DNA of 64,000 bases from a phage. The DNA lies in assembly GCA_037574385.1 (NCBI GenBank), contig GCA_037574385.1_4529.1; one strand, 5' to 3'. Of the stretch, positions 38,636 through 64,000 are shown one piece after another. The notes beneath the pieces were generated by a model. That model saw only the letters and a program-made list of their open reading frames with translations, was not told the origin of the DNA and made no database searches. The first letter of the stretch is position 1. Each line of letters begins with the position of its first letter. The position numbers and the translations under genes are program-made.

Positions 38636-39004
38636 TTATGCAACTTTAATCCAATTGTCTAAATTTAAAACACCTTTGGCTTTCATTTTTTCGATAAGGT
38701 TATCTGCTGTAATGCGTCCATTTTGATACCATGTAACATCTTCAGAGTAACCAGTTTCTTCGTCAACATATGTTTCTGAACGAATTTTACCGGTAATAAT
38801 AGTTTTTAATTCGTATGTGTCACCTGTGAAAAAGTTTGCTAACACAATTTTCCAAGAGAAATCATTTGAAGGACCTTCAGGGGTCATACAACCTACGATC
38901 TCAAATTGCTCTTTGTATAACATCCATTGGAATTCTTTAATTTCGATAGCTTTATAACCGTCGTGGTCTTTACATTCGATGTATGAGTTCAGATTGATTT
39001 TCAT
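38636..39004 (-). CDS. hypothetical protein (122 aa), member of tandem cassette pair
   Basis: Own early promoter (GTTTACtctcc...TACTATAGAC) and identical leader cattttattctccag. Confidence 0.65.
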   Translation of the reverse strand: MKINLNSYIECKDHDGYKAIEIKEFQWMLYKEQFEIVGCMTPEGPSNDFSWKIVLANFFTGDTYELKTIITGKIRSETYVDEETGYSEDVTWYQNGRITADNLIEKMKAKGVLNLDNWIKVA

Positions 39005-39111
39005 TTTATTCTCCAGTTTGTTTTATTGATTAGGTGGTACAAGTCTATAGTAACACATCCTACAGGAGAGTAAACATCTTTTTAAACTTTTTCTGCCCTA
39101 AACACACAAAA

Positions 39112-39129
39112 GGGAGACCGAAGTCTCCC
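39112..39129 (-). terminator. intrinsic terminator GGGAGAC-UUCG-GUCUCCC + CUUUUGUGUGUUU
   Basis: Hairpin 6 nt downstream of the 58-aa basic ORF stop on the minus strand. Confidence 0.8.
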
Positions 39130-39134
39130 TAAAA

Positions 39135-39311
39135 TTATGCAACAACCTTTCCAAAACGAGAAGCATCATCTCGAAGAACTGCACGTGCTCTGCGCATGAT
39201 CTTCTCAACTGTTTGATTAATACGAGAGTTCGACCCACGCTTGTATCCAGCGCGTTTAGAATCACCGACTTTCTTTTCAACTGCTTTCTTTGCTTTAGTT
39301 TGTTTTGCCAT
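39135..39311 (-). CDS. very basic small protein (58 aa), missed by ORF track
   Basis: ATG-to-TAA ORF translating MAKQTKAKKAVEKKVGDSKRAGYKRGSNSRINQTVEKIMRRARAVLRDDASRFGKVVA; terminator immediately downstream; track reports different frames here. Confidence 0.55.
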   Translation of the reverse strand: MAKQTKAKKAVEKKVGDSKRAGYKRGSNSRINQTVEKIMRRARAVLRDDASRFGKVVA

Positions 39312-39683
39312 TATAAATTCTCTTTAAATGAAAATGCAGGACTTATTGACATTGCCTGCTCAAGCCCTCAAGGGGAACATAGGTTTTTGGATATTTAACG
39401 ACCAGGATAACCATAAACCCGTCATCATACCTTATAGCTCTTATCTGTTGCACACCGTTAGCTTAAAGGTTCCGGGTTCGATTTCTCGAGGATAAGATAT
39501 ATACTGATGGATATATAGGCCTTGAGGCGTACTCCCGATTAGCCATCACCTCGGGGTAGCATGCACTTACCGCTATAAGAACAACATTCAAGAGGTACAC
39601 CGTAAAATTGTCGGGGCGGTACTTCTAAAACATACCGATTCGCAAATCGATAATCAGACAATTCGACGGCTCCTCGATTTAAC

Positions 39684-39932
39684 TTACTTCAGGGTAATAA
39701 CAAAATGACGAACTGCTTTACGAGCTGCTGAAGCCAGAGGCTTAGCATATTTCAATTCATCTTTCTGAGCCAGGATATCACGAAGATCGGCCTGTGCTGG
39801 ATTCAGATGTTTGAAATATCGCAGGATTTCCAGTGCTTCGGCTTCAACATCAATTGACGCGCCGTAGTTTTCGTGGCCATTATTCCATGCATGGCGTTGC
39901 AGTTCAAGAGCGTGTTGTAATTGTTTAATCAT
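39684..39932 (-). CDS. rIII: RIII lysis inhibition accessory protein
   Basis: 82 aa; MIKQLQHALELQRHAWNNGHENYGASIDVEAEALEILRYF as T4 RIII; adjacent to gene 31. Confidence 0.93.
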   Translation of the reverse strand: MIKQLQHALELQRHAWNNGHENYGASIDVEAEALEILRYFKHLNPAQADLRDILAQKDELKYAKPLASAARKAVRHFVITLK

Positions 39933-40056
39933 TTTAAATTCTCAATTCGAGATAATATTTAGTAGCCACGTTCGTCTGAATTTCACCTTCTTTCGACAGG
40001 TCTCTCAGTTGTAGGCTACCGCTTAGAAGAGTGTTCTCTTCATATAGTTATTTATA

Positions 40057-40389
40057 TCACTTATAAAGACACGGAATAGCTTTATAGTGGCATGTTACGA
40101 ATTTCTGTTTAATTTCTTTAGGTTGTTTAAGACCTAAAGCCACAAATGGATGTGGAACATTTCGAATTTGTCCAACTGGTAGTGGAGTCAAATCACCGAC
40201 TTCAACAAAACCTTCAGGAACATCAGGACCTACAGAATGAACTACACATAGTTCAGGAACTTCACCTTGAACACGTTTACCAATCACAAGTCCTGATTCG
40301 GTAACTTCTTCATCACCTGCTTGAGCGGGTTCAGAAACCAGAATGACATATTCACCAACAGCACGAATTGGGAGTTGTACTTCAGACAT
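40057..40389 (-). CDS. 31: co-chaperonin for GroEL gp31
   Basis: 110 aa; [29 protein letters not shown]... and C-terminal [15 protein letters not shown] as T4 gp31. Confidence 0.97.
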
Positions 40390-40446: not shown

Positions 40447-40755
40447 TTACATAAGAAGCAAACGTTCCACCGGAGTACCATCAACCGAAATTACTTTATC
40501 AAGGCGGAAAGAACGCCACTGACCTAACTTGGTATCGAATGCTCGAACTGATTCACGAGGTTCATAACGAACTTCTGTTGCCGGATTGTTATTTTCGTAT
40601 TTGACTTCAAGTTCGTCGCGCGAAGCAAACATCGTACGAACATCACCGTTAGCCTTTTCAAATACAACACAATGAACGCCTACAGACAGAATAGTTTTAA
40701 TACGTTCACGAAGAACCATAGTTTCTTGTTCAGTTAAAATCATATTATTCACCAC
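40447..40755 (-). CDS. hypothetical protein (102 aa)
   Basis: ORF between gene 31 and cd. Confidence 0.6.
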   Translation of the reverse strand: MVNNMILTEQETMVLRERIKTILSVGVHCVVFEKANGDVRTMFASRDELEVKYENNNPATEVRYEPRESVRAFDTKLGQWRSFRLDKVISVDGTPVERLLLM

Positions 40756-41326
40756 AAAAGTTTCGGATTTGTTCCCAATTCAGAGAACGAAGATTATTAC
40801 GAGAGTACTGAATTACTTCAATACCAGCTTGTTTTAGAATATCTGCCCAATTTTCAGGAGATCTGTCATATAATTCTGCGTATACAACCTTTTTAATACC
40901 TGACTGCGTAATAGCTTTAGTGCAATCAGGACACGGAGAAAGCGTCGTATATAACGTAGCACCTTCAATAGAATTACCTTTACGAGCGGCAAACAAAATT
41001 GCATTCAATTCTGCGTGGATTTCATTATTAGCAGACCATGCACTATGAGCAGCTCGATGTTCTTTAGCTAAAACAAAATTATCTACCCGTCCAAATGCTG
41101 TAGTGCCTTCTTTATGACCAGCAATGATGACAGGACTCGGCTTGTTCTTCAACCAACCTTGTTCAGTAGCATGGTCACAACAGTTTATACCACCTGCCGG
41201 GCTACCGTTATACCCAGTAGAAATGATACGTCCATCTTTTTCAATGACGGCACCTACTTTCCATGAACAACATTTTGATTCTTGAGAAATCAGATATGCA
41301 ATCTGAAGGTATGTGCTAGCTTTCAT
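40745..41326 (-). CDS. cd: dCMP deaminase
   Basis: 193 aa; zinc-binding HAELNA and PCPDC motifs; length as T4 Cd. Confidence 0.95.
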   Translation of the reverse strand: MKASTYLQIAYLISQESKCCSWKVGAVIEKDGRIISTGYNGSPAGGINCCDHATEQGWLKNKPSPVIIAGHKEGTTAFGRVDNFVLAKEHRAAHSAWSANNEIHAELNAILFAARKGNSIEGATLYTTLSPCPDCTKAITQSGIKKVVYAELYDRSPENWADILKQAGIEVIQYSRNNLRSLNWEQIRNFCGE

Positions 41327-42318: not shown

Positions 42319-42438
42319 AACAATCCTTAGGAGATATAAACAGATTCTGATTCAACAATACCTTTAACCGGATTAGACAGGTTAAGTTGGTAGTGCTCAG
42401 ATTTATGACCATTCTCGATAGTAATGAGATAGCTCTCA

Positions 42439-62958: not shown

Positions 62959-62966
62959 GAGGACTT

Positions 62967-64000
62967 ATGGCTACTTTAAAACAAATACAATTTAAAAGAA
63001 GCAAAACTGCAGGAGCACGTCCTGCCGCTTCAGTATTAGCCGAAGGTGAATTGGCTATAAACTTAAAAGACCGTGTACTTTTTACCAAAGATGACCAAGG
63101 AAATATTATTGATCTAGGTTTTGCTAAAGGCGGTAGTATTGACGGGAATGTTATTCATACAGGCAATTATAACCAAACCGGCGATTATACTTTAAATGGC
63201 GTCTTCACTCAGACTGGTAATTTTAATTTAACTGGTATTGCTCGAGTAACTCGTGATATTATCGCCGCTGGGCAGATTATGACTGAAGGCGGAGAACTTA
63301 TTACAAAAAGTTCAGGTACAGCACATGTTCGTTTTTTCGATAACAATAGCCGCGAACGTGGAATCATTTATGCCCCGGCTAATGATGGTTTAACTACACA
63401 AGTACTTAATATCAGGGTTCAAGACTACGCCGCTGGTGATGAAAGCACCTATGCATTTTCGGGCAGTGGACTATTTACTTCACCTGAAGTATCAGCATGG
63501 AAATCTATTTCGTCTCCACAAATTCTGACCGACAAAGTTATTACAAATGGGAAGAAGACAGGCGATTATGACATCTATTCATTATCAAATAACACTCCAT
63601 TGGCAGAAAGCGAAACGGCTATTAACCACCTCCGTGTTATGCGAAATGCTGTAGGAGCAGGTATTTTCCACGAAGTTAATGTTAATGACGGAATAACCTG
63701 GTATTCCGGAGATGGCTTAGACACTTATCTTTGGTCGTTTACCTGGTCCGGTGGATTGAAAGCCGGTCATTCTATCGCTGTAGGTCTTCCAGGCGGTCCA
63801 AAAGGATATTCTGAATTAGGAACGGCCTCAATTGTTCTTGGTGATAATGATACCGGATTTAAGTGGCATCAGGATGGATATTTCCATACAGTAAACAACG
63901 GAACAAAAACTTTCATTTACGGTCCTGCGGAAACACAAAGCCTTAGAAAAATGGTTATGGGTTATTCTCCAGATGGGCTTCTTATGACAACGCCACCGAC
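62967..64000 (+). CDS. 37: long tail fibre distal subunit gp37, N-terminal part (3' end outside window)
   Basis: MATLKQIQFKRSKTAGARPAASVLAEGELAINLKDR... matches T4 gp37 N-terminus; open to window end. Confidence 0.93.
   Translation, partial: MATLKQIQFKRSKTAGARPAASVLAEGELAINLKDRVLFTKDDQGNIIDLGFAKGGSIDGNVIHTGNYNQTGDYTLNGVFTQTGNFNLTGIARVTRDIIAAGQIMTEGGELITKSSGTAHVRFFDNNSRERGIIYAPANDGLTTQVLNIRVQDYAAGDESTYAFSGSGLFTSPEVSAWKSISSPQILTDKVITNGKKTGDYDIYSLSNNTPLAESETAINHLRVMRNAVGAGIFHEVNVNDGITWYSGDGLDTYLWSFTWSGGLKAGHSIAVGLPGGPKGYSELGTASIVLGDNDTGFKWHQDGYFHTVNNGTKTFIYGPAETQSLRKMVMGYSPDGLLMTTPP

Follow-up and report, generated by a model that had tools for sequence, protein, structure and literature searches.

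Few viruses have been studied as thoroughly as T4 and its relatives, many of which serve in phage therapy against E. coli, Klebsiella, Enterobacter, and Yersinia. Their described non-coding elements include rnaC and rnaD of T4 (the species 1 and 2 RNAs), dispensable T-even RNAs of about 120–140 nt without assigned function, and the PeSLs, mobile cassettes with a regulatory role in T4-type phages (Arbiol 2010, PMC2839356; Comeau 2014, PMC4122927) that have an early-promoter consensus of TTTACW-N17-TAYWAT in PST and T4 and have been described as a driver of modular shuffling (PMC4122927). Here, we describe an element of about 150 nt between the genes rIII and 30.9, at positions 39430–39580 (minus strand) of a 64,000-nt stretch of phage DNA (GenBank assembly GCA_037574385.1, contig GCA_037574385.1_4529.1; hereafter, the window), which is very probably a functional, structured, sense-strand RNA of a new family. 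By a new class of RNA we mean one without a detectable relative; a new mechanism is not implied.

The element shares with rnaC and rnaD their approximate size, their non-coding nature, and the lack of an assigned function. It differs from them in that its sequence and structure are unrelated, and in that rnaC and rnaD sit in the tRNA cluster and have tRNA-like parts, whereas the element is absent from T4. A kinship with the two genes was rejected after a search of the T4 tRNA-rnaC-rnaD region with R1, our covariance model of the element, with filters off; the best score was 10.7 bits (E 0.08) and fell off both genes. GOLLD and ROOL, two orphan complex non-coding RNAs of phages and prophages, are likewise phage-borne, intricately folded, strongly covarying, and without assigned function, but they are several-fold larger, their existing Rfam models do not match the element, and the element is confined to T4-like phages of Enterobacterales. 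Like a PeSL, the element is a non-coding module at an indel hotspot of T4-type phages, with three alleles at its site, and in relatives it lies just downstream of a stem-loop and a TTTACG-N16/17-TATTTT/TATTCT motif that fits the PeSL consensus. PeSLs, however, are short, multi-copy promoter-terminator motifs, whereas the element is a single-copy complex fold with neither promoter nor terminator; the PeSLs may explain how the element moves, not what it does.

Two further comparisons concern its architecture. Purine and lysine riboswitch aptamers have in common with the element a closing helix P1, a multi-helix junction, Watson–Crick kissing between the loops of neighboring arms, covarying helices, conserved junction and loop nucleotides, and a position on the sense strand upstream of a gene. 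The element has no sequence or covariance-model match to them, combines a linker-free four-way junction with a nested three-way junction, and lacks a fixed expression platform, its neighbors being variable. With the hairpin ribozyme and other junction-based small ribozymes, it shares a perfect linker-free four-way junction, an arm with an internal loop, a self-contained modular build, and invariant unpaired nucleotides that could dock into an active core; it matches neither the hairpin ribozyme model (RF00173) nor any other ribozyme family, is larger, and has an extra branched arm. The fold is as elaborate as that of a riboswitch aptamer or a small ribozyme.

The flanks of the gap between rIII and 30.9 were common to about 990 T4-like genomes when the locus was compared by BLAST with 50,697 phage records. 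The central block, which corresponds to the element, was found in 408 of these records at 409 places, as a single-copy element in many genera of Tevenvirinae. Judged by the first word of the organism name, these were phages of Klebsiella (161), Escherichia (131), Shigella (27), Enterobacter (27), Yersinia (18), Salmonella (7), Citrobacter (7), Serratia (6), Raoultella (4), and Erwinia (4), with the remainder under 10 further names, including Edwardsiella. Among IMG/VR contigs, 15 of 40 rIII loci carried the element, as did 20 of 42 gene 30.9 loci. In every locus inspected (JD18, Merlin, Muldoon, EcL8g, Cronus, EcS1, PEi20, and the IMG/VR loci), it lay between rIII and 30.9 and on their strand.

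An alignment of the gap from the window, T4, G3G7, JD18 (Jiaodavirus), and Merlin (Moonvirus) shows the block to be cleanly missing from T4 and almost identical in distant genera, while its flanks diverge or are unrelated; T2 apparently lacks it too. The element of JD18 has an identity of 0.93 to that of the window, as opposed to 0.73 for rIII and 0.80 for 30.9; the corresponding values are 0.93, 0.75, and 0.62 for Merlin, and 0.92, 0.67, and 0.70 for PEi20. Across genera whose protein identity goes down to 55–80%, about half of the nucleotides of the element do not vary; such constraint usually signals a specific partner or chemistry. Between the window and JS98, the element is 98.6% identical and gp30.9 only 67% identical; therefore, recombinational exchange probably adds to the distribution of the element. 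It is accessory and dispensable, behaves as a cassette, and belongs to a family currently confined to T4-like phages infecting Enterobacterales.

The fold was obtained with RNAalifold on a MAFFT alignment of 17 distinct sequences, and a kissing helix was added by eye. The resulting domain (39430–39580; all coordinates of the fold refer to the minus strand) combines a four-way junction with a nested three-way junction and a kissing loop, and in the window R1 gave a single match to it, at 39435–39576 (168.8 bits, E about 1e-36). Helices P1, P2-P2a, P3, and P4 meet with zero linker nucleotides, and the A/U-rich P1 closes the domain. In the window, P1 consists of 9 bp between UCUUAUAGC (39572–39580) and GCUAUAAGG (39430–39438). 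In most relatives it has 4–11 contiguous bp that reach into the flanks, in at least 8 different sequences, and in three Moon-type loci one mismatch breaks the helix after 2 bp; three of the four inner pairs have double changes.

P2 joins GGU (39569–39571) to GCC (39518–39520) and is 100% paired, with a C-G to U-A change in L261, a more divergent member that was recovered with R1 at 107 bits. An internal loop between P2 and P2a sets AAGUGCAU (39561–39568), a strand invariant in all but one column, opposite CUCAAG (39521–39526); neither a K-turn nor an 11-nt tetraloop receptor fits its sequence, and both were rejected. The P2a arm (39527–39560) pairs 39552–39560 with 39527–39537 beneath a 14-nt apical loop. 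This helix is the CCCGA/UCGGG stem noticed at the first reading of the gap, and it covaries: six of nine pairs are doubly changed, and in L261 the stem is completely rewritten as GCAUCAA/UUGAUGC. The P3 hairpin (39498–39517) pairs 39511–39517 with 39498–39504, three of its seven pairs being doubly changed, and its 6-nt loop is CCAUCA (39505–39510).

The whole of this P3 loop is complementary to UGAUGG (39543–39548) in the P2a loop, giving a kissing helix of 6 bp that is 100% paired across 20 distinct sequences and has three doubly changed pairs. Its variants are YGAUGG/CCAUCR in most phages, CAAUGA/UCAUUG in Cronus, EcS1, and L261, and CUAUGG/CCAUAG in Muldoon-type phages. A pairing that RNAalifold had placed within the P2a apical loop (columns 28–30/35–37) was dropped in favor of this covarying helix.

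The P4 arm (39439–39497; 39491–39497 paired with 39439–45) encloses hairpins P5 and P6 and the joiner J6/4. P5 (39486–89/39478–81) carries a GAAA loop in the window; since the loop varies among members (GAAA, GUAA, UAAA, and UAAU), it is not constrained as a docking tetraloop. P6 (39473–77/39452–57) has a conserved 15-nt loop, GAACCUUUAAGCUAA, and is followed by J6/4, GCAACA (39446–51); the P6 loop and J6/4 are both nearly invariant among members. P4, P5, and P6 are each 100% paired, with three, three, and two doubly changed pairs, respectively, and L261 has a G-C to A-U change in P6. No covariation-supported candidates for further tertiary pairs were found for the P6 loop or J6/4.

The case for RNA rests on the behavior of these pairs. 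In the 17-sequence MAFFT alignment, which was made blind to structure, 98.5% of the cells hold standard pairs as opposed to 28–43% when the partners are slid, and 19 of 43 pairs have compensatory double changes versus 2–4 when slid by 1–3 columns. After the addition of the kissing loop and L261, 99.2% of the cells pair across 20 distinct sequences, 24 of 45 pairs are doubly changed (2–5 in the slid controls), and each of the 8 helices contains a compensatory pair. The helices also contain recurrent G·U pairs, such as the U·G at the closing pair of P3 in 17 of the 20 sequences. As these would be A·C mismatches on the other strand, the functional molecule would be the minus-strand RNA. The possibility of a structured RNA raised in the earlier note is therefore supported, the pairing being conserved with many compensatory changes, though the extent given there needs to be narrowed: the complex RNA occupies the central ~150 nt (39430–39580), with simpler, conserved hairpin modules strung along the remainder of the gap.

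One might instead take the block for an element that works at the level of DNA (a protein-binding site, a target of recombination or homing, or a replication signal) or for the remnant of a decayed gene, as that note had also suggested. The indel hotspot with its three alleles, the PeSL-like stem-loop and promoter just upstream in relatives (PMC4122927), and the short hypothetical proteins annotated across the element in several GenBank records would suit such a view. Against it, compensation keeps the pairing in 8 helices, the loop-loop helix included, the frequent G·U pairs suit just one strand as RNA, and the element is more conserved than the genes that flank it. A conserved coding frame was looked for in the relatives and none was found: all 17 sequences have at least one stop in each of the six frames, the lengths of 139, 142, 143, and 151 nt are incompatible with any one frame, and 1-nt indels break the frame in Cronus and L024. 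Variable columns are spread over the codon phases as 24/24/22, without 3-nt periodicity, and they make up 54% of the paired columns versus 40% of the unpaired ones, a pattern that marks a structured RNA whose core is conserved. On this comparative evidence, a DNA element or pseudogene is highly improbable and, for practical purposes, essentially excluded.

The element was annotated as RNA in none of the records inspected; it was either left blank or overlaid with spurious "hypothetical proteins." Such short calls over the element occur in many records of Klebsiella and Escherichia phages.

Of the checks that had been proposed, the alignment of relatives brought out the compensatory changes, and the covariance-model scan returned no known family. 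With the 4227 models of Rfam 15 at gathering thresholds, there were zero matches in the whole window; at E up to 10 over 39000–40000, the gap remained empty, the only hits being terminator-like partial matches at 39101–39246; and at E up to 1, zero matches were obtained with the element of five divergent relatives. ARAGORN found 0 tRNA or tmRNA genes in the window. A plus-strand GGTTCGAT-like string was considered as a sign of a tRNA and rejected, as it is the antisense of P5/P6 and is unconserved (GGTCCGAT in JD18). A type III antitoxin or pseudo-ToxI mimic, with tandem repeats of ~36 nt, was likewise rejected, Tandem Repeats Finder reporting nothing at a score of at least 30 over 39100–39950.

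In a search for a host origin or a host RNA that the element might mimic, the exact core motif was absent from 185,579 bacterial and archaeal species genomes. There was also no match by blastn at E up to 10 against 5,426 E. coli genomes, a threshold that would miss short seed complementarity. Degenerate core patterns selected 73 loci in IMG/VR and 120 in JGI metagenomes, of which R1 kept solely T4-like contigs. The core sequence strings occurred in no paper of the collection searched, and searches for rIII/30.9 and for structured RNA of T4-like phages gave nothing relevant; an earlier listing among the 10,006 candidate RNAs that Fremin et al. 2023 (PMC10690425) catalogued from viruses is possible.

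A consensus scan revealed neither a sigma-70 promoter nor a terminator of its own inside the gap. The A/T-rich "-10-like" hexamers immediately before CGGCAAG make up the 5' strand of P1, which covaries, and P1 could therefore not form in a transcript starting downstream of them. A MotA middle promoter at GGGCUUG(A/C)G was rejected for want of a properly spaced -10, and a PeSL cassette was rejected because the element is single-copy and without the TTTACW-N17-TAYWAT motif.

Several points weigh against the view that the element is a functional RNA of a new family. We infer its expression as RNA from the strand-specific G·U pairs and from its co-orientation with the flanking genes, and a free-standing RNA without its own promoter or terminator would need processing. 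The single sequence has an unremarkable folding energy (z = -0.83), all support coming from comparison, and the shuffle control, in which 0 of 500 shuffles of the 17-sequence alignment matched the observed pairing values, is not to be taken as a probability. The family is shallow, with many near-identical sequences and compensatory changes from perhaps 6–8 lineages, and horizontal exchange rather than constraint may be behind part of the identity across genera. Its natural loss in T4-type phages means that the element is not essential.

As for what the RNA does, the conserved information lies in the junctions and loops, while the helices vary by compensation and the context is variable, which argues for action through tertiary structure. 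The element very probably forms an autonomous RNA domain, delimited by P1, on the sense strand of the rIII-30.9 transcription unit. Most likely, it would act via its three-dimensional fold, either as an aptamer-like platform binding a conserved partner (a small ligand, or a protein of the host or the phage) or as the core of a catalyst; action by antisense pairing, or as a leader whose role depends on position, would be less likely.

Provided that the element is functional, we tentatively favor an accessory RNA that binds a partner; it may be cut out of the mRNA and may have to do with host range or anti-defense. If it binds a host factor or a signaling molecule, it would represent a new kind of phage accessory RNA. 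A bolder proposal is that it is the founding member of a new class of functional RNA in T-even-type phages, either a new self-cleaving ribozyme or an aptamer sensing or sequestering a small molecule or a host factor, which would be exchanged horizontally as an accessory cassette next to rIII. Examples of what it might sense or sequester are a nucleotide signal and a protein of immunity or RNA metabolism that is conserved across Enterobacterales. This is possible, although we would not call it probable. The probability left over from partner binding, processing, and a riboswitch or leader goes to other roles.

Self-cleavage deserves separate consideration. A linker-free four-way junction with an internal-loop arm is the design of junction-based small ribozymes such as the hairpin ribozyme. 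The element has this perfect junction, one arm with a conserved internal loop, and single-stranded nucleotides that do not vary, and as an autonomous intercistronic domain on the sense strand, with an accessory distribution, it tolerates differing neighbors. It might therefore be a self-cleaving ribozyme, or a position-independent element for processing or stability that would uncouple the rIII and 30.9 parts of the polycistronic mRNA. However, most small self-cleaving ribozymes fall short of its 142–151 nt, the scan of Rfam 15 linked it to none of the known ribozyme classes even when E was allowed to reach 10, and no candidate cleavage site was identified; a plain exonuclease block, for its part, would need no invariant loops. 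On balance, we consider self-cleavage or processing of the rIII-30.9 mRNA a somewhat unlikely role for the RNA, but if the element does self-cleave, it would found a new ribozyme class.

The earlier note also proposed a long leader or translational operator of 30.9, and a classical riboswitch would be the natural form of this idea. The element would then be an aptamer in the 5' untranslated region of 30.9, in which the weak, A/U-rich P1, by opening or closing, would control a terminator further downstream or the ribosome-binding site of 30.9; a conceivable ligand is the very basic gp30.9 itself, in a form of autoregulation. The build is indeed aptamer-like in its P1-closed junction, kissing distal loops, conserved junctions, and covarying helices, the element is always upstream of 30.9 in the same orientation, and the Shine–Dalgarno sequence of 30.9 is closely preceded by a hairpin that has a U-rich tail. 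However, no expression platform stands in a fixed relation to the aptamer, since the sequence after P1 and the distance to 30.9 vary, and neither P1 nor P4 was seen to have a conserved alternative partner. T4-type phages that lack the element express the same allele of 30.9 (95–98% identical). The element starts 11–12 nt past the rIII stop in Merlin and Cronus; across genera this distance is 11–120 nt, and that from the element to the true start of 30.9 is about 74–186 nt. In the window, 103 nt separate the rIII stop from the start of P1, and 112 nt separate it from the conserved core. The differing position of the element relative to rIII, 30.9, and the neighboring modules weakens the leader proposal, and the variable order of the modules argues against a classical riboswitch and for an autonomous module, leaving a riboswitch or leader of 30.9 an unlikely account.

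The 5' flank of the element (39581–39683, minus strand; alignments and RNAalifold) is a long irregular hairpin with the cap UCGAUU-UGCG-AAUCGG (39636–39651), followed by a U-rich tract. An AAATCGA/TCGATTT stem had been picked out by eye here, but it is not the best-supported pairing: the comparison favors a (C/U)GAUU-UGCG-AAUC(G/A) hairpin within the longer irregular stem. The hairpin is common to T4 and shows one compensatory change (CGAUU/AAUCG versus UGAUU/AAUCA in T4). Together with its U-rich tract, it may be a weak terminator of rIII. After this stem-loop come TTTACG-N17-TATTCT in G3G7 and TTTACG-N16/17-TATTTT in JS98-type phages, and the counterpart in the window has a degenerate -10, TGTTCT.

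On the other side of the element, module B (39378–39429, minus strand) consists of GUAUGAUG, a hairpin with the conserved loop GUUUAUGGUUAUC, and CGUUAAAUAUCCAAAAACCU, and is conserved in T4 as well. Its general form is GUAUGAUG, a hairpin loop GUU(G/U)UAGGUUAUC containing GGUUAUC, and ACGU(U)AAA...(C)GAAACCUU, the last part also written ACGU(U)AAA...AAACC. The module is near-invariant in Tequatrovirus and JS98-like phages, T4 included, and with a covarying stem it is recognizable in 6 other genera, either upstream or downstream of the element. Among our loci it is also found at ~1415–1470 of L002, ~1150–1200 of L005, ~1380–1440 of L007, ~1300–1360 of L008, and ~1118–1175 of L009.

Module C (39361–39375, minus strand), the hairpin CCCCUUGAGGG followed by CUUG, is an invariant block in the alignment of the window with its relatives, is conserved across genera with a stem that covaries in Cronus (GCCUUCGAGGC), and is present as a single copy in the window. 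Its GUUCCCC...GGG was considered as a type I-E CRISPR repeat and rejected, the resemblance being too weak. The last hairpin (39336–39359, minus strand), GCAGG-14 nt-CCUGC followed by AUUUUCAUUU, is the GCAGG/CCUGC stem of the earlier note. It is conserved in T4-type relatives just 5' of the 30.9 Shine–Dalgarno sequence (AAAGAG, 39320–39325, minus strand), and it is swapped for GGGAGC...GCUCCC in JD18, Merlin, and PEi20.

The order of the element relative to modules B, C, and D differs among genera, and the module stems still covary. In the window, Merlin, Cronus, and EcS1, the element precedes module B, which follows P1, whereas in JD18, Muldoon, and PEi20 it is downstream of module B, and module C follows P1; in EcS1, module C is upstream of the element. 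At the same junction, Tequatrovirus and JS98-like phages have three alleles: nothing (T4), the element, or an unrelated cassette of ~50 nt, UACUAUCACGCGUCAGAAAAAGGUUAUCUGUCUAAGUCGUGGUUG. This third allele, which also holds GGUUAUC, occurs at ~1860–1910 of L086 and in L085, L091, and L094, all IMG/VR T4-like contigs. By these comparisons, the site at 39430–39580 of the window is an indel hotspot and the rIII-30.9 spacer is a mosaic of shuffled RNA modules. Because the element, the empty site, and the alternative cassette occur in otherwise near-isogenic phages, function is directly testable by allele swaps. At a minimum, the element provides a new RNA family with a covariance model, and corrected annotation in more than 400 genomes.

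The window is a segment of a T4-like (Tequatrovirus) genome, closest among GenBank records to Shigella phage ESh27 (99.3%) and Escherichia phage phiC120 (98.9–100%). All genes around the gap are on the minus strand. Upstream are cd (40745–41326), gene 31 (40057–40389), and rIII (39684–39932), an 82-amino acid ORF (open reading frame) that matches phrog_1457 (E 3.6e-42), is named rIII in annotated relatives, and encodes the lysis-inhibition accessory protein. Downstream is gene 30.9 (39135–39311), which encodes a very basic protein of 58 amino acids with a match to phrog_1427 (E 1.4e-30), no matching Pfam family, and 95% identity to T4 gp30.9 by protein alignment. It is followed by a strong intrinsic terminator at 39111–39130, AGGGAGACUUCGGUCUCCCU plus a U-rich tail, after which come genes 30.8 and 30.7.

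The gap between rIII and 30.9 had been placed at 39312–39683 (minus strand), and these boundaries are exact, giving 372 nt. It had been singled out as unusual in an otherwise gap-free region, and it is in fact the longest stretch within the window without an ORF of at least 60 amino acids on either strand; one longer ORF-free stretch, 62959–64000, is an ORF leaving the end of the window. The next-longest such stretches are 39933–40056 (124 nt, the spacer between gene 31 and rIII) and 42319–42438 (120 nt). The further figure of about 25 codons as the upper limit for ORFs is slightly low: on the transcribed strand, ORFs called mechanically from GTG or TTG are 22–45 amino acids long, and none of them is conserved. 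The gap was also described as GC-rich, and its GC content of 0.422 versus 0.381 for the window puts it in the top 8% of windows of the same size. This is true but mild, since rIII (0.434) and 30.9 (0.424) are as GC-rich as the gap and the excess comes from the 142-nt core (0.465, versus 0.396 in the remaining gap).

Finally, some annotations at these loci look wrong. By protein alignment, the annotated start of 30.9 seems too far upstream in JD18 (YP_009190783, L002 1734–1925), where the conserved MAKQ start lies 5 codons further in, and in Muldoon (QFR56163, L005 1384–1608), where it lies 16 codons further in. In several GenBank records, 30.9 is misnamed "1,4-alpha-glucan branching enzyme, GH-13-type," and the small ORF upstream of gene 31 is misnamed "tail fiber protein" in G3G7 and Cronus.

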